Below are positions 9,376 through 36,337 of a stretch of DNA of 36,337 nt, one piece after another. The translations under genes and the position numbers were made by a program. How positions within the stretch are numbered: position 1 is the first letter of the stretch; each line of letters begins with the position of its first letter. The stretch comes from a virus (Duplodnaviria; Heunggongvirae; Uroviricota; Caudoviricetes). The DNA lies in IMG/VR virus record IMGVR_UViG_2541047902_000001. One strand, given 5' to 3'. The notes under the pieces were generated by a model. It was not told where the DNA came from and searched no databases. It worked only from the letters and a program-made list of their open reading frames with translations.

Positions 9376-9400
9376 AGAAAAACCGGCGCTGAGGCCGGGT
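9376..9400 (-). terminator. Intrinsic terminator ending the cI-operon transcript (tImm equivalent)
   Basis: Stem CCGGC/GCCGG with 6-nt loop and T5 run on the minus strand, 6 nt after the stop of the 299-aa gene. Confidence 0.65.
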
Positions 9401-9404
9401 ATAA

Positions 9405-10304
9405 TTATTTGATTATTTCTTTTATAAAGACTTCTTTCGGTTGGTATTTTTTATCTGATGATTTGAGCTGGTACGTTATTGTTATATCAGCACGTACAGC
9501 AAATTTACCTGCAAAATCTGATGGGTTTACGTTGGGGCCAAGAACCATATTTACTCTTCGATCTATTAATCCAGGGATAACAGCAGCCCAACCTTTCTCT
9601 GGATTGTCGAGGTCTAATGCACGGATTTCAACATCAACATCAAAATGATCCTGAGTATATGACTCTGGTGTGAAGACAACTTCAGTTGGGGCTTTTTTAA
9701 TGGTTTCAGCGGGAATGGTCACTGTACCACCCCCTGTACCTATGACCATCGTAGATCCTTCGTCTGCCCTAGCTGGGGCAAGCGTCTTAATGGAACTTTT
9801 GGCAAGAGTCTTCTTATTGGTTACCGTGCTTTCTATGATTGCTTGAAGACGGTCAGGTGAAATATTAGCCTCACCGGCACCAATATTGATGATTGTATTG
9901 TTATTTGCTTCAAAGTGGGAGGTGTTGCTTGGAGCCATAGCCTTAGTTGCTAGAACTAAGCCATATCCAACCAGACCAATAACAACAGCACCAACGAGAG
10001 CGTTTCTCATTTTCCCATTTCCGATCTTTGCATGAGCGCCAGCAAGAAACTTGTCCATTTCTTCTTGGCTACCAAAGAGGAGTTTAATAACAATATCTTC
10101 ATAAAGGCTTCCTGCTTCTAATCGCGCAACATGCACCGATATATCAAGGATATTAGCCCCTGTCAGTTCCTGCAAAACACCTTCTGATTGTTTTGCGATG
10201 GCCTCCCACCCTTGAAGGGAGGTAATCACATCTTTGATGCTTACAGGTTCTTTAGTTGAATAATATATGTTTTCGGTAAAGGTTAAAGATAATTCTTGGG
10301 ACAT
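9405..10304 (-). CDS. Unknown 299-aa single-pass membrane protein in the rexAB position (candidate exclusion / abortive-infection gene)
   Basis: ORF downstream of cI on the same strand; SD GAGGG; central hydrophobic helix (about residues 120-143, NALVGAVVIGLVGYGLVLATKAMA); low GC; followed by a terminator; no family recognised. Confidence 0.7.
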   Translation of the reverse strand: MSQELSLTFTENIYYSTKEPVSIKDVITSLQGWEAIAKQSEGVLQELTGANILDISVHVARLEAGSLYEDIVIKLLFGSQEEMDKFLAGAHAKIGNGKMRNALVGAVVIGLVGYGLVLATKAMAPSNTSHFEANNNTIINIGAGEANISPDRLQAIIESTVTNKKTLAKSSIKTLAPARADEGSTMVIGTGGGTVTIPAETIKKAPTEVVFTPESYTQDHFDVDVEIRALDLDNPEKGWAAVIPGLIDRRVNMVLGPNVNPSDFAGKFAVRADITITYQLKSSDKKYQPKEVFIKEIIK

Positions 10305-16700: not shown

Positions 16701-17631
16701 ATCAAAACAGCAGATTGTGGCCGATGGTAGTGAAAGTGCAACAGTGGACATTCAGTTGGTTGATGCCAATAACAATGCGTTTACAGGCGATGTGGATTTA
16801 ACGGTTACACCATCGACGGGAGCATCATTGACCAGTAGTAAACTGCAGTTGGATGCTCATGGACAGGCAACAACGCAGTTCACAGCATCGAAATCAGGCC
16901 AGTACACAATTCAGGCTGAGTATGTTCTAGATGGGAAACGTATAACCGCAAGCAAAAATATTGATGCCGTGACGGATGTGAAGGAGGCTGTGTTGGAGAT
17001 CACATCATCTGCATCTTCGGCTGTAGTGAGCGATACCAACAATCTGATATTTACGTTACTGTTGAAAAGTACGTCAGGCGAAGTATTAAGTGGTCGAGTA
17101 TTGAATATCAAGGCATCTGGGCCGTCCAAATATGGTGCGTTGGTGGTTGATAAAACCACTGTAACGACTGATGAGTATGGTCTGGCTACGGTAAGCGTAC
17201 ATGGTCGAACGGCTGGTTCGTATAAATTAACGGCGACCTTAGATGAACTTGGCAGTGATGTTAGTGAGGTGAAGTCATTCTCTCTGTATGCTGATGAGGC
17301 AAATGGAGTATTGACACTGCATAAAGATGGAGGCTATGACACAGATGATGGTACTCCAGTGGGGGTTTATGCCCGATTTGTTGACCATTTCGGCAATCCG
17401 TTATCTGGTACGGTTGAGTTTTCTGCTGGTAGTGAAGATAGTCCAAACTCTCAACGGGTTAAAATGGAGCCTGCTACAGTAACGTTACACTGGACAGGTA
17501 ATGCAGCCTCGGAGTTCAGCACCTATGAAAGCGGTTATCACTGGATTAAGGCCAAAATAACGAACAGCAAAAATACATATGAGAAAACAATAAGGACTTA
17601 TGTTGTAAAGCTCCCTGAAAAGGATAGTTAA
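13723..17631 (+). CDS. Invasin/intimin-family inverse autotransporter adhesin with bacterial Ig-like repeats (cargo in the ren slot)
   Basis: 1302-aa ORF; signal-like N-terminus; beta-barrel motifs typical of invasin/intimin beta-domains; long run of Ig-like repeats; AT-rich upstream region; own terminator. Confidence 0.8.
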   Translation: MTTVNKKLKKTASGAITWSVIVTQILSPVSLSLIPANSFASSDNKDVTQIYASDERANKVASFAVSAGQSLANNNASSFAVNTLSTQATKEVVDWLQQYGNARIKLNVDNSFSLKDSSFDFLYPWLDTQDYVLFSQTSLHRTDDRNQTNIGLGIRHFTPDNAMLGANVFYDYDLSRSHSRAGFGVEYWRDYFRLGVNTYFGLSDWKDSRDIDDYLERPANGWDFSAEGWLPAYPQLGASIQFEKYYGKNVGLFGSDNLQENPYAVTGGISYTPVPLIKFSAQHKQGQSNVHDTTFGVEFNYRPGVSLAEQLSSDNVAVMREVQNRRYDFVERNNNIVLEYKKKHALKISLPESVQGDGESIIPVTLTINNASGGIKSVQWNDSVFTAAGGKISGNGTSWQVTLPAYKSEGVNSWNVGATVQDNRGNVSNYAVMNISVINSGVSTADSSFMLDGDSSPTISADGQSTHPIVLSLKDSNGKALTGLADDIEMSVEFTADSNSARQRETVTAPSLGAVEEISAGVYRSVLTAGSQAGTVRVTAKVQGKTFTLNIKQAAVIDSDVSTADSSFTLDGDSSPTISADGQSTHPIVLSLKDSNGKALTGLADDIEMSVEFTADSNSARQRETVTAPSLGAVEEISAGVYRSVLTAGSQAGTVRVTAKVMDKTFTLSIKQTAATEPDSEVSAVLTAAPAEQVVGYNINLQLAVKDSQGNAITGDNTLSFYALNQAEGVEFGAVTEKDGVYSATVTSKRAGKIRIGVKSGSHNFSGIEKEISFIEDRTQFAFSRIEASKNNALADGKQQNTVTLSLADRFGNVVPGYAVTLSLPAGVTQVGGEHAVSTDENGNAVFALISSTPGSYVIKAHAGSQMSTELTVTFASNMIGASLSLTPGNSSLISNIPANGKDAAVLNVQLTNTNASVNGQKIQLITSSERLSVPTNIVTDSTGHVSVPLTTVRAGEYTVAARVTDGSHSVESGSVKLTFVPDAASAELTMSTSKQQIVADGSESATVDIQLVDANNNAFTGDVDLTVTPSTGASLTSSKLQLDAHGQATTQFTASKSGQYTIQAEYVLDGKRITASKNIDAVTDVKEAVLEITSSASSAVVSDTNNLIFTLLLKSTSGEVLSGRVLNIKASGPSKYGALVVDKTTVTTDEYGLATVSVHGRTAGSYKLTATLDELGSDVSEVKSFSLYADEANGVLTLHKDGGYDTDDGTPVGVYARFVDHFGNPLSGTVEFSAGSEDSPNSQRVKMEPATVTLHWTGNAASEFSTYESGYHWIKAKITNSKNTYEKTIRTYVVKLPEKDS
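15040..15753. repeat. Tandem duplication (2 x 357 bp) encoding two nearly identical 119-aa Ig-like domains inside the adhesin gene
   Basis: About 300 bp repeated almost perfectly with a 357-bp period (15046 vs 15403). Confidence 0.9.
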
Positions 17632-17643
17632 CAAAACAGAATA

Positions 17644-17670
17644 GGGAGGGCTAAGCCCTCCCACTTTTTA
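17644..17670 (+). terminator. Intrinsic terminator after the adhesin gene
   Basis: GGGAGGGC-TAA-GCCCTCCC stem followed by a T-run. Confidence 0.7.
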
Positions 17671-17831
17671 ATTGAGACGGACTGTTTCTTAAATTCACTT
17701 ACGTTAGATATGAACTGGTTATTTTTTATAACAATAAAAGACTTTTGATTTTTGAATATCAGTAAGTAATAATGATTTACGTCGACAGACTGAACATCTG
17801 TTGGTGACTTCTGCGCTAAACGGGGACGTTT

Positions 17832-17933
17832 ATGCGCACATACAATCTAAACTCTCTTCTCTCTTCACAGATGCAGAAATGCACCTGCGATTCTTTGCAT
17901 CCAACGTTTGACCTCTGCGGAGGTGAAGCGTGA
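17832..17933 (+). CDS. ylcH: Small Cys-containing protein (DLP12 YlcH-like, 33 aa)
   Basis: [33 protein letters not shown]; stop overlaps the ybcN start; same position and length as DLP12 ylcH. Confidence 0.45.
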
Positions 17934-18385
17934 ACCTCCCACAAGATGGCATCAAATTACATCGCGGTAACTTCACCGCTATCGGTCGGCAGATCCAGCC
18001 TTATCTGGAGGACGGCAAATGCTTTCGCATGGTGCTTAAACCGTGGCGCGAGAGACGCAGTCTTTCCCAGAATGCACTCAGCCACATGTGGTACAGCGAA
18101 ATCAGTGAATACCTCATCAGCAGGGGTAAAACGTTCGCCACTCCAGCTTGGGTAAAAGATGCTCTCAAACACACATATCTCGGTTATGAAACCAAAGACC
18201 TGGTTGATGTCGTAACCGGTGATATCACCACTATCCAGTCGTTACGCCATACCTCCGATCTTGATACCGGAGAGATGTATGTCTTCCTGTGTAAGGTTGA
18301 AGCCTGGGCGGTGAATATTGGCTGCCACCTGACTATTCCGCAGAGCTGCGAGTTCCAGCTGCTCCGCGACAAGCAGGAGGCGTAA
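17930..18385 (+). CDS. ybcN: YbcN-family protein in the NinB position of the nin region
   Basis: 151-aa ORF matching recalled DLP12 YbcN; SD GGAGGTG; GTG start. Confidence 0.8.
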
Positions 18386-18555
18386 TGGCTACACCGCTTA
18401 TTCGTGTCATGAACGGACACATCTACAGAGTATCAAATCGTCGTAAGCGTAAGCCTGAGCTGAAGCCATCCGAAATACCAACACTGCTCGGATATACCGC
18501 TAGCCTGGTTGATAAAAAATGGTTGCGACTGGCAGCAAGGAGGAATCATGGCTGA
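18385..18555 (+). CDS. ninE: NinE
   Basis: 56-aa [59 protein letters not shown]; start overlaps the ybcN stop (TAATG). Confidence 0.75.
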   Translation: MATPLIRVMNGHIYRVSNRRKRKPELKPSEIPTLLGYTASLVDKKWLRLAARRNHG

Positions 18556-18838
18556 TTTGAGAAAAGCAGCGCGTGGTCGGGAATGCCAGGTAAGAATCCC
18601 TGGCGTATGTAATGGCAATTCTGAAACGTCTGTACTGGCACATATCCGGCTGGCTGGATTGTGCGGTACCGGTATCAAACCGCCAGACCTGATTGCCACC
18701 ATTGCATGTTCTGCCTGCCACGACGAAATCGACCGCCGCACACATTTTGTCGATGCTGCATATGCAAAAGAATGCGCGCTGGAAGGTATGGCGAGAACAC
18801 AGGTTATCTGGCTGAAAGAGGGGGTTATTAAGGCGTGA
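18548..18838 (+). CDS. ybcO: YbcO (DUF1364, putative nuclease)
   Basis: 96-aa frame [23 protein letters not shown]... with conserved Cys residues; start overlaps the ninE end. Confidence 0.8.
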
Positions 18839-19198
18839 ATACCTACAGTATCACATTACCCTGGCCTCCGAGCAATAATCGCTATTACCGCCATAATCGC
18901 GGGCGCACGCACGTCAGTGCAGAGGGGGCAGGCATACCGCGATAACGTCGCCCGAATCATTAAAAACGCAATGCTGGATATCGGCCTGGCTATGCCTGTG
19001 AAAATCCGCATTGAGTGCCACATGCCGGATCGCCGTAGCCGTGACCTGGATAATCTGCAAAAAGCCGCTTTTGACGCACTCACTAAAGCAGGTTTCTGGC
19101 TGGATGATGCTCAGGTCGTTGATTACCGCGTTGTGAAGATGCCTGTTACCAAAGGTGGGAGGCTGGAACTGACCATCACCGAAATGGGGAATGAATGA
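18835..19198 (+). pseudogene. rusA: rusA (Holliday-junction resolvase) disrupted by a +1 frameshift in a G-run
   Basis: N-terminal RusA sequence [31 protein letters not shown] in frame 1 stops at 18943-18945; the rest ([16 protein letters not shown]...TITEMGNE) continues in frame 2; shift at GAGGGGG (18922-18928). Confidence 0.8.
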
Positions 19199-19335
19199 TG
19201 TTTGAGTTTAATATGGCAGAACTTCTTCGCCACCGCTGGGGGCGTCTGCGCTTATATCGTTTCCCCGGCTCTGTTTTGACCGATTACCGAATACTGAAGA
19301 ATTACGCCAAAACACTGACAGGAGCAGGAGTATGA
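19195..19335 (+). CDS. ylcG: YlcG (small DLP12-type protein, 46 aa)
   Basis: [46 protein letters not shown]; start overlaps the rusA stop. Confidence 0.6.
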
Positions 19336-19420
19336 AGTCAGAGATAACAATCAACTAATACTGTTTTGTTGATTTTTGCTTGTAATTGGCGTTCTGGTCT
19401 GAGTTTTGTGGAGTAAGTTG

Positions 19421-19798
19421 ATGCGTGATATTCAGATGGTTCTTGAGCGTTGGGGAGCGTGGGCGGCTAATAATCATGAAGATGTGACCTGGTCGTCCAT
19501 TGCCGCCGGTTTTAAGGGATTAATTCCTTCAAAAGTAAAATCTCGCCCGCAATGTTGTGACGATGACGCGATGATCATTTGCGGGTGCATGGCCCGTCTG
19601 AAAAAGAACAACAGCGATTTGCATGATTTATTGGTGGACTATTATGTCGGCGGCATGACTTTTATGGCGCTTGCACGTAAGCATGGGCGATCTGATTGTT
19701 GGGTTGGCAGGATGCTCCAGAAAGCTGAGGGCGTAGTGGAGGGTATGCTGATGGTGTTGGATCTCCGATTGGAGATGGATGCTGATTGTTCGAAATAA
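19421..19798 (+). CDS. Q: Late-gene antiterminator Q, phage-82/DLP12 QuuD type
   Basis: 125-aa frame from ATG 19421 ([24 protein letters not shown]...) with Cys-rich putative zinc-binding region. Confidence 0.85.
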
Positions 19799-19898
19799 TT
19801 AAAGGAAAAGTTGCTGTCTGATTCTCATTAGTCTAACATTTTAAATGTTGGAATCGCAACGTAGTTATTATCATATAACAGCTTGTTTCCTGATTTAG
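19799..19898 (+). promoter_or_regulatory. Predicted late promoter pR' / Q-utilisation region
   Basis: Position immediately downstream of Q and upstream of a short-transcript terminator; -35/-10 elements not confidently resolved. Confidence 0.35.
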
Positions 19899-19926
19899 CC
19901 AGCCTCCCCAAAGGCTGGTTTTTTTC
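19899..19926 (+). terminator. Intrinsic terminator (tR'-like) downstream of Q
   Basis: Stem CCAGCCT/AGGCTGG with 6-nt loop followed by T7. Confidence 0.75.
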
Positions 19927-19953
19927 TAATAAGTATTATTTCGGGTAGGGATT

Positions 19954-20478
19954 TTATTGTTTAACCCATAATAATTCATTGACATTGAATCCCAACTTTT
20001 GAGCGGTTCGCACATAGTCTGCTTTTACTTTATCTGGAATAGTTGGGGTCCTTGCCAGAATCCATAGGTATTCTCTGTTCGGACCACTGACAAGAGCATA
20101 CTTATACTCATCATCCAGTTTGATTACATTATAGCCACCATAGAAGGGGCCAAAAAACGAAACCTTCAACGCTGCAGTTTTAGTATCTCCAGTAAAGTAT
20201 GCTTTACCTTCGCTCTCGCTCCATTTATTTTTCGTTGGATCGTATCCACGGTTAAGTACACGAATCCCTCCGTCGTTCCGTTTTCCATAAGTAGCGCTGA
20301 CCTGTTCCAGACCACGTTCGAACCGGTTCTCGAGGCGAGCTATTTCATACCACTTTCCGAGGTAGCGGTTGGCGTCAAAATTTGTAATCGGCTGCACACC
20401 TTTAGGTGGTGTCGGGGCCTTACATGCTATAAGAGTGAAAGAGAGTGCAATGCCAGTCAACACAGGCCATAACTTCAT
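19954..20478 (-). CDS. Bacterial lipocalin (Blc-like outer-membrane lipoprotein)
   Basis: 174-aa ORF with lipobox LIAC and conserved lipocalin motifs (NFDANRYLGKWYEIARLENRFERG..., FFGPFYGGYNVI); opposite orientation to the late operon. Confidence 0.8.
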   Translation of the reverse strand: MKLWPVLTGIALSFTLIACKAPTPPKGVQPITNFDANRYLGKWYEIARLENRFERGLEQVSATYGKRNDGGIRVLNRGYDPTKNKWSESEGKAYFTGDTKTAALKVSFFGPFYGGYNVIKLDDEYKYALVSGPNREYLWILARTPTIPDKVKADYVRTAQKLGFNVNELLWVKQ

Positions 20479-20670
20479 AATAAATCCTGTACTTTTGATA
20501 GTTGAGAGTAAGTATGAAAGATAGATGATTACGACCGATCACTTAAAGAACTTTCATACTATATTAGGAATAGTCCATAACAGAAAAATTGTCAGTGATG
20601 ACGCCAGAAAGGCAATTTATTCCGTGCACTACACAGTTTATGTGTTAATGAATTAGTCAAGGGGGAGGAT

Positions 20671-21630
20671 ATGATAAAAAAACCTGTGATTGGAATCAGC
20701 GGTTGTCTGGCCGGTTCTGCTGTTCGTTTTGATGGTGGTCACAAAAGAGCTGACTTTTTAATGGACAAATTAGTGGAATGGGTAACATTCAGACCAGTAT
20801 GTCCGGAAATGGCTATAGGGCTGCCAGTTCCGCGTCCTGCTCTACGTCTTGTGCGCTCGACGCAAGGAAATATACGGATGTGTTTCAGCCACGACCAGAA
20901 TGAGGATGTGACAGAGAGAATGACAGAGTTTAGTCGTTCTTATATGGACAAATTAAAGGATGTATCGGGGTTTGTGGTTTGTGCTAAATCTCCCAGCTGT
21001 GGCATGGAGCGCGTGCGTGTCTATGATGAAAATGGTAATCGAGGTCGTAAAGATGGAGTGGGACTATTTACGAGCACTTTGATGGAAAAGTTTTCCTGGC
21101 TACCGGTTGAAGAGGATGGGCGATTACATGATCCAGTGCTTCGTGAGAATTTTGTTGAAAGAGTTTTTGCTTTGCATGAGCTCAATCACCTTTACAAGGA
21201 GAAATTATCAAGAAGAGAGTTATTAGCTTTTCATAGTCGTTATAAGCTTCAGTTGTTGGCGCATAGTCAGGCAGGCTATAAAGATATGGGACCATTTGTG
21301 GCTGCAATACACGAGTGGGCGGACCTTGAATCATACTTTGAGGTGTATCGTGATAAGCTGATGGCGATTCTCAGAAAACCTGCATCACGTAAAAATCACA
21401 CGAATGTGATGATGCATATACAGGGGTATTTTAGTAACTACTTAAGTACACGCCAGCGTAAAGAGTTGAGCGAGGTTATACTTAACTATCGTTCTGGCAC
21501 ATTACCTCTTCTTGCGCCGTTGACTCTGCTGAAGCATTATCTGGGTGAGTATCCTAATGATTACTTGCTTACACAGAATTACTTCGATCCCTATCCGGAC
21601 GAACTGGCTCTAAGACTGATGGTAAATTAA
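20671..21630 (+). CDS. DUF523/DUF1722-family protein (YbgA/TudS-like, Cys-rich)
   Basis: 319-aa ORF; N-terminal Cys positions GISGCLAG, RPVCPEM, CAKSPSCGMERV resemble the DUF523 fold; C-terminal extension. Confidence 0.55.
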   Translation: MIKKPVIGISGCLAGSAVRFDGGHKRADFLMDKLVEWVTFRPVCPEMAIGLPVPRPALRLVRSTQGNIRMCFSHDQNEDVTERMTEFSRSYMDKLKDVSGFVVCAKSPSCGMERVRVYDENGNRGRKDGVGLFTSTLMEKFSWLPVEEDGRLHDPVLRENFVERVFALHELNHLYKEKLSRRELLAFHSRYKLQLLAHSQAGYKDMGPFVAAIHEWADLESYFEVYRDKLMAILRKPASRKNHTNVMMHIQGYFSNYLSTRQRKELSEVILNYRSGTLPLLAPLTLLKHYLGEYPNDYLLTQNYFDPYPDELALRLMVN

Positions 21631-22124
21631 TTGTATGCGATATCATCCAAAAGGATGAGTTCCTGCATGCAGGATATTTACAATCGTAAAAACTACACTA
21701 TGATACCCAGAGTGTCAGTTTGTATAAAAACTCTGTTTACGCTGAAGAAACCATTGAGATGCAACTTAAAGTTGGTAAACATGCCAGTCAAAATATATAA
21801 TATTATGATTCCACGCAGCTATATATAATATAACAGATTGGTTTAATAATTTGTCTTTGTGAGTTAAATACATAATTTTATACTTGTGATGCAATGAGAT
21901 TTTCCTTATTGTTGAACTGGCGAATATTGATTTTCCACCTATACTTACTTGGTGTAACCCCAATGATATCAGGTGGATAATATGCCATACATATGTTCTA
22001 TCATTTTGGTGTTGAACTCGTTTGATGTCCGAATTGGTAAAGAAGATATTTTATTTAAAAAAGGAAGTGCTGTTCTCATTGATTAAAATTTAAAAGATTT
22101 TTTTCATCAAATATAGATCATGCA

Positions 22125-22706
22125 ATGATCGTAGATGTTGAAGAGAAAACAGTTAATGATTTCTTTAAAAGCAACACACTCTCACCTTTTTCTGTAAGAA
22201 GGTTTTATCCGGCATACTTGATGGTGGAATGTGAAGATTTTTCATTGTTAAAGAACTTGATTGCATGCTTGAATTGTGATGGCAGAACTGTGGATTTTGT
22301 TAGAAATCAAATATCACTTGCATGTCTTGCTATCTTATCTTCAGAGAAAATAGTGCAAAGTTTTTTATTTGGATGTCTTAATAGTTTAGGAAGTAAAGTT
22401 AAGGCTATTATTCACACGGATATATCTGCAGCATGGAGACTTTGTGATATATCTTCAAGACTGTATCTGAGTGAAAGTCTGTTAAAAAGAAAATTAAAGC
22501 ACGAAGGCTTATCATTTAGTAAGTTAATTCTTGAAGAGCGAATGGTGATGGCGGAAAGGTTATTAAGCTACAATTTATATTCTGTTGGAAAAGTTGCTGA
22601 GATATGCGGTTATGAAAACACGTCATATTTTGTAAGTGTTTTCAGAAGATATTTTTGTGTTCCTCCCCATCAATATTCATCAAGATTTTTTTTAGAAAAG
22701 ACATGA
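22125..22706 (+). CDS. AraC-family transcriptional regulator (C-terminal HTH), probably the downstream part of a frameshifted gene
   Basis: 193-aa ORF with AraC-type HTH; very AT-rich; a 34-codon ORF with strong SD at 21982 ends at 22086 in another frame. Confidence 0.6.
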   Translation: MIVDVEEKTVNDFFKSNTLSPFSVRRFYPAYLMVECEDFSLLKNLIACLNCDGRTVDFVRNQISLACLAILSSEKIVQSFLFGCLNSLGSKVKAIIHTDISAAWRLCDISSRLYLSESLLKRKLKHEGLSFSKLILEERMVMAERLLSYNLYSVGKVAEICGYENTSYFVSVFRRYFCVPPHQYSSRFFLEKT

Positions 22707-24101: not shown

Positions 24102-24395
24102 TTATTGTGAGCAATAGACACGCGCTTCCAGCGGAGTATAAATGCCTAAAGTAATAAAACCGAGCAATCCATTTACGAATGTTTGCTGGGTTTCTGTTTT
24201 AACAACATTTTCTGCGCCGCCACAAATTTTGGCTGCATCAACAGTTTTCTCCTGTCCAATTCCCGAAACGAAGAAATGATGGGTGATGGTTTCCTTTGGT
24301 GTTACTGCTGTCGGTTTGTTTCCAACAGTAAACGTCTGTTGAGCACATCCTGTAATAAGCATTGCCAGAGCGGCAGAAAACAACATTTTTTTCAT
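24102..24395 (-). CDS. bor: Bor lipoprotein (serum-resistance)
   Basis: 97-aa frame from MKKMLFSAALAMLITGC... matching lambda Bor. Confidence 0.9.
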   Translation of the reverse strand: MKKMLFSAALAMLITGCAQQTFTVGNKPTAVTPKETITHHFFVSGIGQEKTVDAAKICGGAENVVKTETQQTFVNGLLGFITLGIYTPLEARVYCSQ

Positions 24396-24952: not shown

Positions 24953-25151
24953 GAGGTTGCCCCGTATTCAGTGTCGCTGATTTGTATTGTCTGAAGTTGT
25001 TTTTACGTTAAGTTGATGCAGATCAATTAATACGATACCTGCGTCATAATTGATTATTTGACGTGGTTTGATGGCGTAGATGCACGTTGTGATATGTAGA
25101 TGATAATTATTATCATTTTTCGGGTCCTTTCCGGCGATCCGACAGGTTACG

Positions 25152-25163
25152 GGGCGGCGACCT
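25152..25163. other. cos: cosN cohesive-end site (GGGCGGCGACCT)
   Basis: Exact lambda 12-nt cohesive-end sequence followed by CGCGGGTTTTCGCTATTTATGAAAATTTTC. Confidence 0.9.
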
Positions 25164-25339
25164 CGCGGGTTTTCGCTATTTATGAAAATTTTCTGGGGAA
25201 AATCATGTCGGTACTTCTCGAACATAACTATTTGTTTTTTCTAATATCGAATCCGTAAAAGGTCCGACATGAAAACGCCTAAAAAAGTCATTTTCGGGCA
25301 CTTTCATGTCGGCCCCTGTATTTATTGTGAGACTGTTTC
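25164..25339 (+). promoter_or_regulatory. cosB region (small-terminase binding sites), diverged from lambda
   Basis: Segment between cosN and the Nu1 start; sequence after position about 25196 differs from recalled lambda cosB. Confidence 0.5.
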
Positions 25340-25859
25340 ATGAAGGTTAATAAAAAGAAACTTGCCGAAATTTTCAACGTGGATCCGCGAACGATTGAAC
25401 GCTGGCAGTCTCAGGGACTCCCTTGCGTCTCCGGAGGTGGTAAGGGCGTTGAATCTGTATTTGATACCGCCATGGCAATTCAGTGGTATGCGCAGAGGGA
25501 AGCTGATATCGAAAATGAAAAACTCCGTAAAGAGGTTGAGGATTACAGGGCTGCCAGTGAGGCAGATCTCCAGCCTGGGACTATTGAGTACGAACGCCAT
25601 CGACTTACGCGTGCGCAGGCCGACGCACAGGAGCTGAAGAATGCCAGAGACTCCGCAGAGGTGGTGGAAACCGCATTCTGTACTTTCGTGCTGTCACGGA
25701 TCGCAGGTGAAATTGCCAGTATTCTTGACGGGATCCCTCTCTCGGTACAGCGGCGTTTTCCGGAACTGGAAAACCGACATGTTGATTTCCTGAAACGGGA
25801 TATCATCAAAGCCATGAACAAAGCAGCCGCGCTGGATGAACTGATACCGGGGTTGCTGA

Positions 25860-25885
<26 letters not shown>
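25340..25885 (+). CDS. nu1: Terminase small subunit Nu1 (phage-21-like N-terminal DNA-binding domain, lambda-like C-terminus)
   Basis: 181-aa ORF; N-terminus [29 protein letters not shown] resembles phage 21 gp1; residues after about 75 match lambda Nu1. Confidence 0.9.
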
Positions 25886-29566
<3,681 letters not shown>

Positions 29567-29586
<20 letters not shown>

Positions 29587-30886
29587 TCTCCCGCATATTG
29601 CCAGCATGGCTTTTAATGAGCCGCTGATGCTTGAACCCGCCTATGCGCGGGTTTTCTTTTGTGCGCTTGCAGGCCAGCTTGGGATCAGCCGCCTGACGGA
29701 TGCAGTATCCGGCGACAGCCTGACTGCCGGAGAGGCACCCGCGGCACTGGCGTTATCCGGTGATGATGACGGACCACGACAGGCCCGCAGCTATCAGGTC
29801 ATGAACGGCATCGCCGTGCTGCCGGTGTCCGGTACGCTGGTCAGCCGGACGCGGGCGCTGCAGCCGTACTCGGGGATGACCGGTTACAACGGCATTATCG
29901 CCCGTCTGCAACAGGCTGCCAGCGATCCGATGGTGGACGGCATTCTGCTGGATATGGACACACCGGGCGGGATGGTGGCGGGAGCATTTGACTGTGCTGA
30001 CATCATCGCCCGTGTGCGAGACATAAAACCGGTATGGGCGCTGGCCAACGACATGAACTGCAGTGCAGGTCAGCTGCTTGCCAGCGCCGCCTCCCGGCGT
30101 CTGGTCACGCAGACCGCCCGGACAGGCTCCATCGGCGTCATGATGGCTCACAGCAATTACGGTGCTGCGCTGGAGAAACAGGGCGTGGAAATCACGCTGA
30201 TTTACAGCGGCAGCCATAAGGTGGATGGCAATCCCTACAGCCATCTTCCGGATGACGTCCGGGAGACACTGCAGTCCCGGATGGACGCAACCCGCCAGAT
30301 GTTTGCGCAGAAGGTGTCGGCATATACCGGCCTGTCTGTGCAGGCTGTGCTGGATACCGAGGCTGCAGTGTACAGCGGTCAGGAGGCCATTGATGCCGGA
30401 CTGGCTGATGAACTTGTTAACAGTACCGATGCGATCACCGTTATGCGTGATGCACTGGATGCACGTAAATCCCGTCTCTCAGGAGGGCGAATGACCAAAG
30501 AGACTCAATCAACAACTGTTTCAGCCACTGCTTCGCAGGCTGACGTTACTGACGTGGTGCCAGCGACGGAGGGCGAAAACGCCAGCGCGGCGCAGCCGGA
30601 CGTGAACGCGCAGATCACCGCTGCGGTTGCGGCAGAAAACAGCCGCATTATGGGGATCCTCAACTGTGAGGAGGCTCACGGACGCGAAGAACAGGCCCGC
30701 GTGCTGGCAGAAACCCCCGGTATGACCGTGGAAACGGCCCGCCGCATTCTGGCAGCTGCACCACAGAGTGCACAGGCGCGCAGTGACACTGCGCTGGATC
30801 GTCTGATGCAGGGGGCACCGGCACCGCTGGCTGCAGGTAACCCGGCATCTGATGCCGTTAACGATTTGCTGAACACACCAGTGTAA
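29567..30886 (+). CDS. C: Head maturation protease / scaffold C (GTG start)
   Basis: 439-aa frame VTAELRNLPHIASMAFNEPLML... matching lambda gpC; start overlaps the B 3' end. Confidence 0.93.
30281..30886 (+). CDS. nu3: Scaffolding protein Nu3 (in-frame internal start within C)
   Basis: 201-aa C-terminal frame from MDATRQMFAQ..., same arrangement as lambda. Confidence 0.8.
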   Translation: MDATRQMFAQKVSAYTGLSVQAVLDTEAAVYSGQEAIDAGLADELVNSTDAITVMRDALDARKSRLSGGRMTKETQSTTVSATASQADVTDVVPATEGENASAAQPDVNAQITAAVAAENSRIMGILNCEEAHGREEQARVLAETPGMTVETARRILAAAPQSAQARSDTALDRLMQGAPAPLAAGNPASDAVNDLLNTPV

Positions 30887-30895
30887 GGGATGTTT

Positions 30896-31228
30896 ATGAC
30901 GAGCAAAGAAACCTTTACCCATTACCAGCCGCAGGGCAACAGTGACCCGGCTCATACCGCAACCGCGCCCGGCGTATTGAGTGCGAAAGCGCCTGCAATG
31001 ACCCCGCTGATGCTGGACACCTCCAGCCGTAAGCTGGTTGCGTGGGATGGCACCACCGACGGTGCTGCCGTTGGCATTCTTGCGGTTGCTGCTGACCAGA
31101 CCAGCACCACGCTGACGTTCTACAAGTCCGGCACGTTCCGTTATGAGGATGTGCTCTGGCCGGAGGCTGCCAGCGACGAGACGAAAAAACGGACCGCGTT
31201 TGCCGGAACGGCAATCAGCATCGTTTAA
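30896..31228 (+). CDS. D: Head decoration protein D
   Basis: 110-aa frame [26 protein letters not shown]... matching lambda gpD. Confidence 0.95.
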
Positions 31229-31246
31229 CTTTACCCTTCATCACTA

Positions 31247-31270
31247 AAGGCCGCCTGTGCGGCTTTTTTT
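31247..31270 (+). other. Hairpin plus T-run between D and E (terminator-like structure inside the late operon)
   Basis: GCCGC-CTGT-GCGGC stem followed by T7. Confidence 0.5.
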
Positions 31271-31283
31271 ACGGGATTTTTTT

Positions 31284-32309
31284 ATGTCGATGTACACAAC
31301 CGCCCAGCTGCTGGCGGCAAATGAGCAGAAATTTAAGTTTGATCCGCTGTTTCTGCGTCTCTTTTTCCGTGAGAGCTATCCCTTCACCACGGAGAAAGTC
31401 TATCTCTCACAAATTCCGGGACTGGTAAACATGGCGCTGTACGTTTCGCCGATTGTTTCCGGTGAGGTTATCCGTTCCCGTGGCGGCTCCACCTCTGAAT
31501 TTACGCCGGGATATGTCAAGCCGAAGCATGAAGTGAATCCGCAGATGACCCTGCGTCGCCTGCCGGATGAAGATCCGCAGAATCTGGCGGACCCGGCTTA
31601 CCGCCGCCGTCGCATCATCATGCAGAACATGCGTGACGAAGAGCTGGCCATTGCTCAGGTCGAAGAGATGCAGGCAGTTTCTGCCGTGCTTAAGGGCAAA
31701 TACACCATGACCGGTGAAGCCTTCGATCCGGTTGAGGTGGATATGGGCCGCAGTGAGGAGAATAACATCACGCAGTCCGGCGGCACGGAGTGGAGCAAGC
31801 GTGACAAGTCCACGTATGACCCGACCGACGATATCGAAGCCTACGCGCTGAACGCCAGCGGTGTGGTGAATATCATCGTGTTCGATCCGAAAGGCTGGGC
31901 GCTGTTCCGTTCCTTCAAAGCCGTCAAGGAGAAGCTGGATACCCGTCGTGGCTCTCATTCCGAGCTGGAGACAGCGGTGAAAGACCTGGGCAAAGCGGTG
32001 TCCTATAAGGGGATGTATGGCGATGTGGCCATCGTCGTGTATTCCGGACAGTACGTGGAAAACGGCGTCAAAAAGAACTTCCTGCCGGACAACACGATGG
32101 TGCTGGGGAACACTCAGGCACGCGGTCTGCGCACCTATGGCTGCATTCAGGATGCGGACGCACAGCGCGAAGGCATTAACGCCTCTGCCCGTTACCCGAA
32201 AAACTGGGTGACCACCGGCGATCCGGCGCGTGAGTTCACCATGATTCAGTCAGCACCGCTGATGCTGCTGGCTGATCCTGATGAGTTCGTGTCTGTACAA
32301 CTGGCGTAA
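31284..32309 (+). CDS. E: Major capsid protein E
   Basis: 341-aa frame MSMYTTAQLLAANEQKFKFDPLFLRLF... matching lambda gpE. Confidence 0.97.
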   Translation: MSMYTTAQLLAANEQKFKFDPLFLRLFFRESYPFTTEKVYLSQIPGLVNMALYVSPIVSGEVIRSRGGSTSEFTPGYVKPKHEVNPQMTLRRLPDEDPQNLADPAYRRRRIIMQNMRDEELAIAQVEEMQAVSAVLKGKYTMTGEAFDPVEVDMGRSEENNITQSGGTEWSKRDKSTYDPTDDIEAYALNASGVVNIIVFDPKGWALFRSFKAVKEKLDTRRGSHSELETAVKDLGKAVSYKGMYGDVAIVVYSGQYVENGVKKNFLPDNTMVLGNTQARGLRTYGCIQDADAQREGINASARYPKNWVTTGDPAREFTMIQSAPLMLLADPDEFVSVQLA

Positions 32310-32350
32310 TCATGGCCCTTCGGGGCCATTTTCTCTCTGTGGAGGAGTTC

Positions 32351-32749
32351 ATGACGAAAGATGAACTGATTGCCCGTCTTCAGGAGCTGGGTGAGCAACT
32401 GAACCGCGATGTCAGTTTGACGGGAACGAAAGAAGAACTGGCGCTTCGTGTGGCAGAGCTGGAAGAAGAGCTTGATGACACGGATGAAACTGCCGGTCAG
32501 GACACCCCTCTCAGCCGGGAAAATGTGCTGACCGGGCATGAAAATGAGGTGGTATCAGCGCAGCCGGATACCGTGATTCAGGATACGGCTGAACTGGTCA
32601 CGGTCGTGGCACTGGTGACGCTGCATACTGATGCGCTTCACGCCACGCGGGATAAACCTGTGGCATTTGTGCTGCCGGGAACGGCGTTTCGTGTCTCTGC
32701 CGGTGTGGCAGCCGAAATGACAGAACGTGGCCTGGCCAGAATGCAATAA
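32351..32749 (+). CDS. FI: DNA-packaging protein FI
   Basis: 132-aa frame from MTKDELIARLQELGEQLNRDVSLTGTKEELALRVAEL... matching lambda FI. Confidence 0.9.
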   Translation: MTKDELIARLQELGEQLNRDVSLTGTKEELALRVAELEEELDDTDETAGQDTPLSRENVLTGHENEVVSAQPDTVIQDTAELVTVVALVTLHTDALHATRDKPVAFVLPGTAFRVSAGVAAEMTERGLARMQ

Positions 32750-32760
32750 CGGGAGGCGCT

Positions 32761-33114
32761 GTGGCTGATTTCGATAACCTGTTCGATGCTGCCATTGCCC
32801 GCGCTGATGAAACGATACGCGGGTACATGGGAACGTCAGCCACCATTACATCCGGTGAGCAGTCCGGTGCGGTGATACGTGGTGTTTTTGATGACCCTGA
32901 AAATATCAGCTATGCCGGACAGGGCGTGCGCGTTGAAGGCTCCAGCCCGTCCCTGTTTGTCCGGACTGATGATGTGCGGCAGCTGCGGCGTGGAGACACG
33001 CTGATCATCGGTGAGGAAAACTTCTGGGTAGATCGGGTTACGCCGGATGATGGCGGAAGCTGTCATCTCTGGCTTGGGCGGGGCGTACCGCCTGCCGTTA
33101 ACCGTCGCCGCTGA
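32761..33114 (+). CDS. FII: Head completion protein FII
   Basis: 117-aa ORF (GTG start) matching lambda FII. Confidence 0.93.
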   Translation: MADFDNLFDAAIARADETIRGYMGTSATITSGEQSGAVIRGVFDDPENISYAGQGVRVEGSSPSLFVRTDDVRQLRRGDTLIIGEENFWVDRVTPDDGGSCHLWLGRGVPPAVNRRR

Positions 33115-33125
33115 AAGGGGGATGT

Positions 33126-33704
33126 ATGGCCATAAAAGGTCTTGAGCAGGCCGTTGAAAACCTCAGCCGTATCAGCAAAACGGCGGTGCCTGGTGCCGCC
33201 GCAATGGCCATTAACCGCGTTGCTTCATCCGCGATATCGCAGTCTGCGTCACAGGTTGCCCGTGAGACAAAGGTACGCCGGAAACTGGTAAAGGAAAGGG
33301 CCAGGCTGAAAAGGGCCACGGTCAAAAATCCGCAGGCCAGAATCAGGGTTAACCGGGGGGATTTGCCCGTAATCAGGCTGGGTAATGCGCGGGTTGTCCT
33401 GTCCCGCCGCAGGCGTCGTAAAAAGGGGCAGCGTTCATCCCTGAAAGGTGGCGGCAGCGTGCTTGTGGTGGGAAACCGTCGTATTCCCGGCGCGTTTATT
33501 CAGCAACTGAAAAATGGCCGGTGGCATGTCATGCAGCGTGTGGCCGGGAAAAACCGTTACCCCATTGATGTGGTGAAAATCCCGATGGCGGTGCCGCTGA
33601 CCACGGCGTTTAAACAGAATATTGAGCGGATACGGCGTGAGCGTCTTCCGAAAGAGCTGGGCTATGCGCTGCAGCATCAACTGAGAATGGTAATAAAGCG
33701 ATGA
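33126..33704 (+). CDS. Z: Tail completion protein Z
   Basis: 192-aa ORF matching lambda gpZ. Confidence 0.95.
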   Translation: MAIKGLEQAVENLSRISKTAVPGAAAMAINRVASSAISQSASQVARETKVRRKLVKERARLKRATVKNPQARIRVNRGDLPVIRLGNARVVLSRRRRRKKGQRSSLKGGGSVLVVGNRRIPGAFIQQLKNGRWHVMQRVAGKNRYPIDVVKIPMAVPLTTAFKQNIERIRRERLPKELGYALQHQLRMVIKR

Positions 33705-34096
33705 AACATACTGAACTCCGTGCAGCCGTACTGGATGCACTGGAGAAGCATGACACCGGGGCGACGCTTTTTGATGGTCGCCCCGCTGTTTTTGATGAGG
33801 CGGATTTTCCGGCAGTTGCCGTTTATCTCACCGGCGCTGAATACACGGGCGAAGAGCTGGACAGCGATACCTGGCAGGCGGAGCTGCATATCGAAGTTTT
33901 CCTGCCTGCTCAGGTGCCGGATTCAGAGCTGGATGCGTGGATGGAGTCCCGGATTTATCCGGTGATGAGCGATATCCCGGCACTGTCAGATTTGATCACC
34001 AGTATGGTGGCCAGTGGCTATGACTACCGGCGCGACGATGATGCGGGCCTGTGGAGTTCAGCCGATCTGACTTATGTCATTACCTATGAAATGTGA
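33701..34096 (+). CDS. U: Tail terminator protein U
   Basis: 131-aa ORF matching lambda gpU. Confidence 0.95.
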
Positions 34097-34103
34097 GGAC
34101 GAT

Positions 34104-34844
34104 ATGCCAACACCAAATCCTCTGGCACCGGTGAAAGGGGCCGGGACCACACTGTGGGTTTATAAGGGGAACGGTGACCCTTATGCGAACCCGCTTTCAG
34201 ACGTTGACTGGTCGCGTCTGGCAAAAGTTAAAGACCTGACGCCCGGCGAACTGACCGCTGAGTCCTATGACGACAGCTATCTCGATGATGAAGATGCGGA
34301 CTGGACTGCGACCGGGCAGGGGCAGAAATCTGCCGGAGATACCAGCTTCACGCTGGCGTGGATGCCCGGAGAGCAGGGGCAGCAGGCGCTGCTGGCGTGG
34401 TTTAATGAAGGTGATACCCGTGCCTATAAAATCCGCTTTCCTAACGGCACGGTCGATGTGTTCCGTGGCTGGGTCAGCAGTATCGGTAAAGCGGTGACGG
34501 CGAAGGAAGTGATCACCCGCACGGTGAAGGTCACCAATGTTGGACGCCCGTCGATGGCTGAAGATCGCAGTACGGTGACGGCAGCAACCGGCATGACGGT
34601 AACGCCAGCCAGTGCTTCCGTAGTGAAAGGGCAGAGCACCACGCTGACCGTGGCATTCCAGCCGGAAGGTGTAACCGACAAGAGCTTCCGTGCGGTGTCT
34701 GCGGATAAAACAAAAGCCACCGTGTCGGTCAGTGGTATGACCATCACCGTGAACGGCGTTGCTGCAGGCAAGGTCAACATTCCGGTCGTATCCGGTAATG
34801 GTGAGTTTGCTGCGGTTGCAGAAATCACCGTCACCGCCAGTTAA
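34104..34844 (+). CDS. V: Major tail protein V
   Basis: 246-aa frame from [22 protein letters not shown]... matching lambda gpV including the C-terminal Ig-like domain. Confidence 0.95.
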
Positions 34845-34859
34845 TCCGGAGAGTCAGCG

Positions 34860-35276
34860 ATGTTCCTGAAAACCGAATCATTTGAATATAACGGCGTGAC
34901 CGTCACGCTTTCTGAACTGTCAGCCCTGCAGCGTATTGAGCATCTCGCTCTGATGAAACAGCAGGCAGAATCCGACAGCAACCGGAAGTTTACTGTGGAA
35001 GACGTCATCAGAACCGGCGCTTTTGTGGTGGTGGCGATGTCCCTGTGGCATAACCATCCGCAGAAGACGCAGATGCCGTCCATGAATGAAGCCGTTAAAC
35101 AGATTGAGCAGGAAGTGCTTACCACCTGGCCCACAGAGGCAATTTCTCATGCTGAAAACGTGGTGTACCGGCTGTCCGGAATGTATGAGTTTGTGGTGAA
35201 TAATGCCCCTGAACAGGCAGATGACGCCGGGCCTGCAGAGCCTGTTTCTGCGGGAAAGTGTTCGACGGTGAGCTGA
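34860..35276 (+). CDS. G: Tail assembly chaperone G
   Basis: 138-aa ORF matching lambda gpG; ends just after the slippery site. Confidence 0.93.
35252..35258 (+). promoter_or_regulatory. Programmed -1 ribosomal frameshift slippery heptamer G_GGA_AAG (G to G-T frame)
   Basis: Heptamer in the G zero frame 6 codons before the G stop; the -1 frame continues open with the gpT N-terminal sequence [27 protein letters not shown]. Confidence 0.85.
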
Positions 35277-36007
35277 GTTTTGCCCTGAAACTGGCGCGAG
35301 AGATGGGGCGACCCGACTGGCGCGCCATGCTTGCCGGGATCCCTTATGCGAACCCGCTTTCAGACGTTGACTGGTCGCGTCTGGCAAAAGTTAAAGACCT
35401 GACACCCGGCGAACTGACCGCTGAGTCCTATGACGACAGCTATCTCGATGATGAAGATGCGGACTGGACTGCGACCGGGCAGGGGCAGAAATCAGCCGGA
35501 GATACCAGCTTCACGCTGGCGTGGATGCCCGGAGAGCAGGGGCAGCAGGCGCTGCTGGCGTGGTTTAATGAAGGTGATACCCGTGCCTATAAAATCCGCT
35601 TTCCTAACGGCACGGTCGATGTGTTCCGTGGCTGGGTCAGCAGTATCGGTAAAGCGGTGACGGCGAAGGAAGTGATCACCCGCACGGTGAAGGTCACCAA
35701 TGTGGGACGCCCGTCGATGGCTGAAGATCGCAGTACGGTGACGGCGGCAACCGGCATGACGGTAACGCCAGCCAGTGCGTCCGTAGTGAAAGGACAGAGC
35801 ACCACGCTGACCGTGGCATTCCAGCCGGAAGGCGTAACCGACAAGAGCTTCCGTGCGGTGTCTTCGGATAAAACAAAAGCCACCGTGTCGGTCAGTGGTA
35901 TGACCATCACCGTGAACGGCGTTGCTGCAGGCAAGGTCAACATTCCGGTCGTATCCGGTAATGGTGAGTTTGCTGCGGTTGCAGAAATCACCGTCACCGC
36001 CAGTTAA
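35258..36007 (+). other. Chimeric ORF: gpT N-terminal 27 codons fused in frame to V residues 26-246 (product of the tandem duplication), in the -1 frame of G
   Basis: 249-aa [30 protein letters not shown]|[17 protein letters not shown]...; junction at 35340/35341. Confidence 0.7.
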
Positions 36008-36022
36008 TCCGGAGAGTCAGCG

Positions 36023-36337
36023 ATGTTCCTGAAAACCGAATCATTTGAATATAACGGCGTGACCGTCACGCTTTCTGAACTGTCAGCCCTGCAGCGTATT
36101 GAGCATCTCGCTCTGATGAAACAGCAGGCAGAATCCGACAGCAACCGGAAGTTTACTGTGGAAGACGTCATCAGAACCGGCGCTTTTGTGGTGGCGATGT
36201 CCCTGTGGCATAACCATCCGCAGAAGACGCAGATGCCGTCCATGAATGAAGCCGTTAAACAGATTGAGCAGGAAGTGCTTACCACCTGGCCCACAGAGGC
36301 AATTTCTCATGCTGAAAACGTGGTGTACCGGCTGTCC
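36023..36337 (+). CDS. G: Second copy of tail assembly chaperone G (partial, runs off the window end)
   Basis: About 99 percent identical to the first G but with a 3-bp in-frame deletion (GAFVVAMSLW vs [11 protein letters not shown]). Confidence 0.85.
   Translation, partial: MFLKTESFEYNGVTVTLSELSALQRIEHLALMKQQAESDSNRKFTVEDVIRTGAFVVAMSLWHNHPQKTQMPSMNEAVKQIEQEVLTTWPTEAISHAENVVYRLS

Follow-up and report, generated by a model that had tools for sequence, protein, structure and literature searches.

A head-to-tail V-G-T' repeat at a contig end in a lambda-like prophage of Escherichia coli UMEA 3163-1, most likely an assembly artefact

Source and prophage context

The window, meaning here the whole analysed stretch of 36,337 nucleotides, was byte-identical to sequence of scaffold KE701782.1 of Escherichia coli UMEA 3163-1 (NCBI GCA_000460495.1), a draft genome of 2013. 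It corresponds to the left two-thirds of P1, a lambda-like prophage that is inserted at att-lambda (ybhC, int ... tail fibre, bioA) and encodes exo, bet and gam. The V, G, T and H genes of P1 constitute an ordinary lambda module for the tail tube, the chaperone with its frameshift, and the tape measure. The KE701782.1 contig runs 2 nt beyond the window end and is followed by a 5,610-N gap. A second lambdoid prophage, P2, which is also carried by the relative TUM2330, is located elsewhere in the genome and is 95–99% identical to P1 in the repeat stretch. UMEA 3163-1 was not mentioned in the literature searched; the Broad pipeline presumably comprised ALLPATHS-LG with Pilon.

Genes and reading frames

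The final part of the window, on the forward strand, begins with a complete ORF for the major tail (tube) protein V (V1, 34104–34844), which is 246 amino acids (aa) long and contains the Pfam domains Phage_TTP_12 and Big_2. The exact V1 protein could be found elsewhere in at least 34 blocks, each with a single V-G-T-H order. It is followed by an ORF for the tail assembly chaperone G (G1, 34860–35276; 138 aa), which carries one extra Val encoded by GTG at 35025–35027. Among 153 billion gene positions, the exact G1 protein with this Val was present in one contig only, and the +GTG allele of G was found in none of the complete E. coli genomes. The lambda-type -1 slippery heptamer GGGAAAG was intact at 35252–35258, forward strand, and in phase with G1 (G GGA AAG), as the first-pass annotation had stated.

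The -1 frame was occupied by a T'::V' chimeric ORF of 249 aa (35258–36007, forward strand; stop at 36005–36007), in which 27 T codons are followed by a hybrid Ile codon and V residues 26–246, in agreement with the in-frame fusion read earlier. The ORF has been deposited as EQX36128.1, "major tail protein V", and occurs in one contig only in the public collection. The formal -1 frameshift product, G-T'-V', is 382 aa long. The GTG at 35258 had been proposed as an independent start; no convincing ribosome-binding site was located upstream of it, and its use as a start follows the annotation convention for gene T. To our knowledge, lambda T is produced solely as the G-T fusion.

A second G starts at 36023, as had been noted, and is truncated by the contig end to its 5' part (G2, 36023–36337, forward strand). 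This end lies 1 nt before a P1/P2 difference, and the 5,610 N follow it. The arrangement resembles a lambda-type module in that a G ORF (Phage_TAC_2) lies between V and the tape-measure gene (V1 and G1, with H fragments after the gap), and in that an in-phase slippery heptamer is located near the 3' end of G in copy 1, while the site of copy 2 falls in the unassembled gap. The full T domain (Phage_tail_T, approximately 144 aa), which is present as a 144-aa T in finished relatives, was absent from the -1 frame of copy 1, where 27 T codons lead into V'. A full T had been presumed beyond the window. The sequence there consisted of 5,610 Ns, a contig of 1,560 nt beginning at about T codon 39, and more Ns; T codons ~39 to 144 of copy 2 lie on that contig and codons 1–38 are missing in the gap. 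From codon 106 onwards the second G is unassembled, as are its slippery site and the first 38 codons of T.

The tandem repeat and its junction

The presence of a head-to-tail V-G-T' repeat in the deposited sequence could be confirmed, with the anatomy V(26-end)-G-T(1-27) described in the first-pass annotation. Copy 1 (34178–35340, forward strand) is 1,163 nt long and extends from V codon 26 through G to T codon 27 plus 2 nt; it has P2-type alleles at 7 sites and the private +GTG. Copy 2 (35341–36337, forward strand) extends from V codon 26 to the end of V and through G codons 1–105, where it is cut by the window end, and differs from the P1 reference at a single position, the P2-type base at 35494. 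An identity of 99% over such a repeat length is far beyond chance.

Comparison of the copies within the window revealed 8 substitutions and a 3-bp indel, a difference of about 0.8%; the indel had been reported correctly, while the earlier count of about nine substitutions was too high. The substitutions (copy 1/copy 2) were G/A at 34241/35404, T/A at 34331/35494, T/G at 34541/35704, A/G at 34583/35746, T/G at 34616/35779, G/A at 34631/35794, T/C at 34670/35833 and G/T at 34701/35864. Only the last of these changes the V protein (Ala/Ser), and the indel is the extra GTG of copy 1 at 35025–35027.

A genuine tandem duplication is expected to have a novel head-to-tail junction, and such a junction could be located at 35340/35341 (GGGAT/CCCTTAT, 35336–35347, no strand assigned). 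The sequence reads GCTTGCCGGGAT up to the breakpoint and CCCTTATGCG after it; the same T'/V' junction can also be written as GCCGGGAT followed by CCCTTATG. The junction has 0 bp of microhomology and forms a GGATCC. A restriction or cloning artefact at this hexamer was considered and rejected, as neither parent contains GATC at the breakpoint and the window contains five GGATCC, which points to chance. A switch mediated by microhomology at GCCGGGA, a heptamer shared by T (35333–35339) and V (34140–34146), was likewise discarded because 31 nt would then be missing relative to the observed junction. Rearrangements with zero microhomology are unusual in E. coli, and such a junction is more in keeping with a ligation or joining artefact than with replication slippage.

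Alleles of the second prophage

All 8 substitutions between the copies were P2 alleles, carried by copy 1 at seven sites and by copy 2 at the eighth, while both copies had P1 alleles at the remaining P1/P2 sites that they both cover. The 7/1 split looks like a phase switch. As in false duplications, the differences between the copies were thus alleles of a paralogous sequence, except for the 3-bp indel, which is not explained in this way. The P2 alleles in the copies are a sign of cross-talk between paralogous prophages (mis-phasing or gene conversion) and not of time-dependent divergence. A private patch of 11 SNPs with P2 alleles was also observed in J/lom on the same scaffold, in a single-copy context; no relative sharing it was found (best match 99.0%). 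Natural V alleles are themselves highly mosaic.

Relatives and searches for the junction

TUM2330 was 100.0% identical to window positions 1–25000 and had 0 mismatches over positions 25000–34177 (9,178 nt), and the 1,560-nt contig after the gap was 100% identical to TUM2330 P1. A single V-G-T-H was present in TUM2330, strain 631 and other genomes matching at 99% or more; besides TUM2330, about 49 complete genomes had this single arrangement. The finished assemblies of the closest relatives therefore have no duplication, as would be expected if the repeat were false.

Neither the 5,426 complete E. coli genomes nor the 50,697 phage records contained the junction, and an exact 27-nt search gave no match in GTDB representatives, IMG/VR or JGI metagenomes. 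A protein word search, in which cluster representatives of similar length only were covered and which is thus a weak negative, revealed neither the junction nor the +Val allele. Across these searches no independent sighting in another assembly, isolate, phage or metagenome, and no chimeric fragment, supported a genuine duplication. The full haplotype of copy 1 occurred in no complete genome, the best match being 99.1%. Import of copy 1 as a whole from another natural phage was rejected, as this match is the P1 allele itself; the segment 34530–34720 was the sole part of copy 1 with a 100% match, which was to P2.

Assembly quality around the repeat

Five of the eight contig ends in the tail region were located exactly 1 nt from a difference between P1 and P2 (TUM2330), and the other three were inside P1/P2-identical runs of at least 138 nt. 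The contig end at the window end belongs to the former kind, lying beside the 5,610 N, and a contig end within a repeat is a mark of false duplication. The deposited gaps were further checked against TUM2330 P1, by the length of P1 sequence absent between the contigs on either side, and their sizes were off by kilobases. Gaps of 5,610 N, approximately 8,080 positions and 370 N corresponded to 192, 664 and 123 nt, respectively, and a 10-N gap corresponded to a 49-nt overlap of the contigs, a minor false duplication spanning that gap. At the start of a different E. coli draft, G-3'/T-5' stands in an exact tandem repeat of 128 nt, which yields a T'::G' chimeric ORF; assemblers can create such junctions in the G/T region. 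False duplications have been reported to cluster at gaps and to arise from near-identical alleles (PMC9516828), and gap extension may enter another copy of a repeat (PMC4237348).

Interpretation

These observations suggest that the tandem V'-G-T' repeat is probably a repeat-driven misassembly and is most likely not in the chromosome. The repeat occupies the last 2.2 kb of a contig, where the short-read assembler failed to tell P1 and P2 apart. The extra copy and the junction may stem from chimeric mate-pair reads or from one of the assembly steps (graph resolution, patching, gap extension), and the true structure would be a single V-G-T-H as in every finished relative. An assembly error would then account for the annotated T'::V' ORF and for the G-T'-V' product of frameshifting. 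Four features count against misassembly. Neither P1 nor P2 contains the junction or the +GTG, and therefore some source, either reads or a patching step, is required. Both G copies have P1-specific alleles where TUM2330 P2 differs, and a simple P1/P2 mix-up is no explanation for a P1-type G occurring twice. Furthermore, the haplotype switches between SNPs 40–90 nt apart, and switches so close together are expected from a pure large-k de Bruijn assembler only where matching reads exist; this leaves room for real gene conversion and duplication. Lastly, natural V alleles are themselves mosaic to a high degree.

A real, very recent and strain-private 1,163-bp tandem duplication in P1 is the principal alternative, although a rather unlikely one. 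Its origin would lie in an illegitimate, homology-independent fusion of T codon 27/28 with V codon 25/26, and the same episode of repair or recombination could also have copied P2 patches and introduced a +GTG slip into one of the G copies. It would supply both the junction and the +GTG sequence and would account for a P1-specific G occurring twice, with copies told apart by the indel. The 313-nt exact repeat and the loop alone would explain the contig stop; loops that stay unclosed are described for Pilon (PMC4237348). The P2-type patch in J/lom could be true gene conversion, indicating P1–P2 recombination in the lineage, and natural V alleles are mosaics. On the other hand, the duplication is seen in one draft assembly only and is absent from TUM2330, despite 100% identical flanks, and from other finished relatives, and it would have to fall by chance at a contig end within the ~0.3% of the genome in which the two prophages are almost the same. 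Beside 34 kb of unchanged sequence, several rare private events would be needed: the junction, the +GTG and no fewer than 3 conversion tracts, one of them a reciprocal-looking swap at 34331/35494. The zero microhomology would be unusual for E. coli, and the wrong gap sizes and overlapping contigs make the scaffold unreliable in this region.

It is improbable that a real duplication was confined to a subpopulation of the culture, for instance after spontaneous induction and Red-mediated recombination, and was promoted to the consensus by the assembler; the exo, bet and gam of the prophage and a supply of junction and +GTG reads without fixation would suit this course, but assemblers as a rule prune junctions of low frequency. 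An old duplication, or a recombinant of two related free phages, kept as a functional variant tail module, is so improbable that it was rejected: the ~0.8% difference between the copies and the in-frame fusion speak for it, whereas the flanks are identical to those of relatives without the duplication, the differences are all alleles of the co-resident P2 shared out over both copies, no second occurrence was present in any collection searched, and the full copy 1 haplotype reached 99.1% at best in complete genomes. The first-pass annotation had taken the divergence as an argument against a trivial assembly duplication and for recombination between related phages or an old duplication; old-age divergence is not supported because the flanks are 100% identical to TUM2330 and the substitutions are P2 alleles. 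Its suggestion of recombination between related phages represents a minority reading.

Overall, the repeat is most likely an artefact or, at the most, a recent duplication private to the strain and without demonstrated importance. Were the duplication real, the prophage would have a full-length V, an extra G and a rare G-T'-V' fusion lacking 117 of the 144 T residues, in addition to normal G and G-T, provided that an intact copy lies in the gap. A neutral to mildly harmful effect would be expected, with the doubled G dose shifting the G:GT ratio and the fusion lacking the first 25 V residues. It is very unlikely that the duplication is real and that -1 frameshifting also yields low levels of a G-T'-V' fusion, in which a truncated tube subunit is tethered directly to the tape-measure-binding chaperone. 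If true, this fusion would be a natural experiment on the recruitment of V by the T domain, alongside an extra G and normal G/G-T from the second copy. A real duplication would be one more private prophage rearrangement rather than a new kind of system, with modest value for understanding the G:GT ratio and the T domain in lambda tail assembly. The main value of the case is one of caution: the chimeric EQX36128.1 and the one-off G variant WP_021561289.1, both from this contig end, are now in public protein databases and could be mistaken for a gene fusion or a frameshift novelty.

Comparison with known systems

The module resembles the tail module of phage lambda in gene order (Z-U-V-G-T-H), in V DNA (95–96% identical), in Pfam content (Phage_TTP_12 and Big_2, Phage_TAC_2, Phage_tail_T, TMP_2) and in the same G GGA AAG heptamer, 18 nt upstream of the G stop. 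In lambda, G and GT are made at a ratio of approximately 30:1 by programmed -1 frameshifting, and the G part binds the tape measure H while the T part binds V (PMC5009743). The deposited first G differs in being followed by 27 T codons and then V residues 26–246, and the second G-T is unassembled, whereas finished relatives are canonical.

Spontaneous tandem duplications with arbitrary end points are reportedly classical in phage lambda (Bellett/Emmons, 1970s). These and the short-junction duplications of enterobacteria, which have been proven physically or genetically, are matched by the present repeat in its local head-to-tail form of about 1 kb, its arbitrary ends and its lack of long junction homology; the UMEA 3163-1 case differs in that it rests on a single draft contig end. 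The P2-type patches in P1 (V, J/lom) and the mosaic V alleles resemble gene conversion among co-resident lambdoid prophages, but homologous exchange gives in-register hybrids and does not by itself give an out-of-register T-to-V junction.

Compared with false duplications at gaps (Ko et al. 2022, PMC9516828; Pilon, PMC4237348), the seamless novel junction rather than Ns between the copies is atypical, and the organism is haploid, with two co-resident prophages acting as haplotypes. The likeness lies in near-identical versions standing in tandem beside a gap, in copies distinguished by alleles of a paralogue, in absence from better assemblies and in other overlap and gap-size errors in the same scaffold.

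Structure and coding content of the repeat

The presence of a head-to-tail repeat at the 3' end of the window could be confirmed using a repeat finder and pairwise alignment, with copy 1 located at 34178–35340 (1,163 nt) and copy 2 at 35341–36337, where it is truncated by the window end. With an ORF map and direct reading, V1, the major tail protein ORF (246 aa), was placed at 34104–34844 and G1, the chaperone ORF (138 aa), at 34860–35276, and direct reading located the lambda heptamer G GGA AAG in phase at 35252–35258. A 249-aa ORF in the -1 frame (T'::V', 35258–36007) consisted of T codons 1–27, a hybrid Ile codon, and V residues 26–246, while a second G (G2) starts at 36023 and is open at the window end. 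Alignment, ORF map, and direct reading thus agreed with the first-pass annotation on the V-G-T' anatomy and its coding consequences, namely the slippery site, the in-frame T'::V' ORF, and the second G. Slippage at the heptamer would yield a 382-aa G-T'-V' protein. The same annotation had given T'::V' its own GTG start at 35258; sequence inspection revealed no convincing ribosome-binding site upstream of this codon, leaving an independent T'V' product unsupported.

The copies were found to differ at 8 substituted positions, together with one additional GTG in copy 1 at 35025–35027; the divergence described earlier therefore stands, with the count of about nine substitutions corrected to eight. 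At the breakpoint (GGGAT/CCCTTAT), the parents have zero bases in common. A GGATCC arises at the junction, which was treated as chance because the window contains five GGATCC in total and GATC is absent from both parents at the breakpoint.

Source scaffold and prophage organization

The exact 249-aa chimeric protein occurred in one contig among 153 billion gene positions, scaffold KE701782.1 of GCA_000460495.1, and its public entry is EQX36128.1, "major tail protein V", of Escherichia coli UMEA 3163-1. The window corresponds to KE701782.1 without differences and ends 2 nt upstream of a run of 5,610 N, which is followed by a 1,560-nt island from approximately T codon 39 to codon 416 of the tape measure gene H and then by further Ns. 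From G codon 106 onward, the second G is missing from the assembly, as are the second slippery site and T codons 1–38; the second G and presumably full T expected earlier are thus not readable.

The prophage (P1) is lambda-like and inserted at att-lambda, based on annotation borrowed from a 100%-identical relative. Its left part contains ybhC (1–1284), int/xis, exo-bet-gam, cIII, ral, sieB, the repressor, cII, and O/P, followed by a 1,302-aa inverse autotransporter, the nin region, Q, lysis genes, and iss/bor. The late genes in the window are terminase, portal, protease, D, E, FI, FII, Z, U, V, and G, and further along the scaffold are H (C-terminal part), M, L, K, I, J, lom, tail fibre, and bioA-D. 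The Pfam families on V-G-T-H were those expected, and DNA identity to lambda V was 95–96%. Classical att-lambda integration could be seen, with ybhC and int at the left (window 1–2489) and bioA–bioD past the tail fibre genes at the right (17048–22400 of scaffold stretch L021).

The cargo gene for the inverse autotransporter (intimin/invasin-like; window 13723–17631) separates replication gene P from the nin region. Within this gene is a direct repeat of 357 nt with 98% identity (15030–15329 and 15387–15686), considered real because the gene is identical in E. coli TUM2330. According to the annotation of the 100%-identical TUM2330 copy, rusA and a helix-turn-helix gene (18835–19198 and 21982–22706) are frameshifted pseudogenes. 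Other cargo included iss/bor (24102–24395, minus strand), sieB (8056–8637), a lipocalin (19954–20478, minus strand), and a YbgA-family gene (20671–21630).

Junction in other genomes

When a 321-nt query with the junction at its centre was searched, the V half and the T half were matched in 3,699 of 5,426 complete E. coli genomes, with no junction-spanning record at ≥80% coverage among them. The query gave no junction-spanning match among 50,697 phage records either, and the exact 27-nt junction had no match in GTDB representative genomes, IMG/VR, or JGI metagenome contigs. The late region of P1 was matched at ≥99% by 49 complete genomes, and the relatives inspected, strains 631 and TUM2330, each carry a single V-G-T-H. 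TUM2330 was the nearest relative, with 100.0% identity over window 1–25000 and 0 mismatches over 25000–34177, while the island was 100% identical to P1 of strain 631, which differs from that of TUM2330 at 8 of 16,338 late-region positions. More than 35 kb without any change is thus set against a 2.2-kb repeat region in which 8 substitutions and an indel occur together with a new junction.

Among short proteins matching the junction peptide, one of 48 aa (P0118) was a T(1–22)::G(C-terminus) chimera. Its contig, JARFOP010000060.1 in the E. coli draft assembly GCA_037544505.1, opens with a tandem repeat of an exact 128-nt unit from the G-3'/T-5' region (L027 1–257), and the 127+1 period at the contig start looks like a de Bruijn graph artefact. 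Chimeric-ORF junctions of downstream to upstream sequence therefore do arise at contig ends in the V-G-T neighbourhood, and other genomes offer well-documented cases in which near-identical alleles gave rise to false duplications at gaps (PMC9516828). Separately, in a deposited T protein of 69 aa (P0098), ...AMLAG (residue 27) is fused to ...GVRFGPD by an internal deletion. Both deletion ends in T carry the 8-nt direct repeat CTTGCCGG (window 35329–35336; scaffold stretch L002 ~16877–16884), so the T codon 25–27 region also marks the end of a deletion elsewhere.

Origin of the differences between copies

A second lambdoid prophage (P2), carried by TUM2330, ES1, and a strain named ST38, has tail genes 95–99% identical to those of P1. 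When both copies were aligned with P1 and P2, all eight substitutions fell on P1/P2 differences; the differences are therefore not accumulated divergence, and the proposal of an old duplication does not hold. Copy 1 carried P2 alleles at 34241 and 34541–34701 (7 sites altogether), whereas copy 2 was P1 sequence apart from a P2 allele at 35494, where copy 1 is P1-type. The other P1/P2 sites covered by both copies (34439, 34442, 34787, and sites in G) were P1-type in both. The substitutions thus are cross-talk with P2, arising either technically, through mis-phasing of a two-copy repeat, or biologically, through gene conversion; as natural V alleles are mosaics of the same variants, haplotypes alone have no power to separate the two. 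The additional GTG and the junction were the only features that matched neither P1 nor P2. Among 6,207 G genes from complete genomes, none had the GTG allele, and the corresponding G protein occurred in this one contig only.

Scaffold quality around the repeat

The downstream part of the scaffold was retrieved via the tail-fibre protein, and TUM2330 P1 sequence absent between flanking contigs served as the gap yardstick. The gap past the window was deposited as 5,610 N (L002 11083–16692) for 192 missing nt, the gap past the island as ~8,080 positions, 3,169 of them unseen (L002 18253 onward and L021 1–2413), for 664 nt, and a gap within the tail genes as 370 N (L021 5756–6125) for 123 nt. Between contigs D and E in gene J, 10 N were deposited (L021 8297–8306) where the flanks overlap by 49 nt on TUM2330 P1 (L017 30181–30229), amounting to a short stretch falsely duplicated on the two sides of the gap. 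Compared with TUM2330 P1, the tail-region gaps were oversized by ~13 kb in total.

Five of eight contig ends, including the end just past the window and both island ends, lay exactly 1 nt from a difference between P1 and the TUM2330 P2, and the remaining three within P1/P2-identical runs of 138–193 nt. These positions show that UMEA 3163-1 carries a TUM2330-type P2 and that the P1/P2 repeat causes every break in the tail region. The genome was presumably processed with a Pilon pipeline. For a gap that is not closable, Pilon provides "consensus extensions from each flank", with one wrong extension into a different copy of a repeat described (PMC4237348). A contig halt at the first divergent base would be expected of such flank extension.

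The single-copy P1 contigs of the scaffold were P1-type at 875 of 886 P1/P2 sites. The other 11, all P2-type, formed one patch at the J 3' end and lom 5' end (L017 31104–31322, L021 ~9230–9448) with two unconverted sites inside, absent from seven other P1 carriers (six loci and TUM2330) and from all complete genomes. Private to UMEA 3163-1, the patch reflects either real gene conversion or cross-talk from polishing. P2-type patches in P1 are thus a general trait of the assembly or strain and are not limited to the duplication.

Evaluation of explanations

As a property of the deposited sequence, the observation holds; the duplication is most probably no real genomic feature, and an assembly artefact is the probable source of the tandem V'-G-T' repeat. 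The repeat is located at a contig end, within the ~0.3% of the genome over which the two prophages are nearly identical; its blunt junction has no independent sighting, and the nearest finished relatives are single-copy with identical flanks. In addition, P2 alleles are divided between the copies with a phase switch, gross errors occur elsewhere on the scaffold, and several "rare events" would be clustered beside 35 kb unchanged. The earlier interpretation is thus supported only in part: its anatomy and coding consequences hold, but the argument from age, the argument that the copy differences speak against an artefact, and the expected intact T do not.

A real, private, and recent duplication is a possible but clearly less probable explanation. 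It would supply a source for the junction and the additional GTG, P1-specific G sequence is found twice, and a genuine loop would account for the unclosed gap; moreover, some haplotype switches are only 40–90 nt apart, and a strict large-k graph assembler would emit these only if they are in the reads. A subclonal event is improbable. An old or functional variant can be considered very improbable, as the copy divergence previously taken as a sign of age consists of P2 alleles split between the copies.

Consequences for the tail module

If the duplication is real, full-length V would still be produced from copy 1, and normal G and G-T from copy 2, provided that the gap hides an intact copy. The added products would be a second G dose and G-T'-V' from a few percent of G1 ribosomes, with no independent T'V' product. 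T is known to be synthesised solely as the G-T fusion; the G-T'-V' fusion lacks 117 of the 144 residues of T along with V residues 1–25. The effect would likely be neutral or mildly deleterious, and the repeat would represent an unremarkable rearrangement, private to this strain, of a module that is well known. In lambda, G and the -1 frameshift product G-T occur at a ratio of ~30:1, the G part of these chaperones binds the tape measure H while the T part binds V, and the virion contains neither (PMC5009743).
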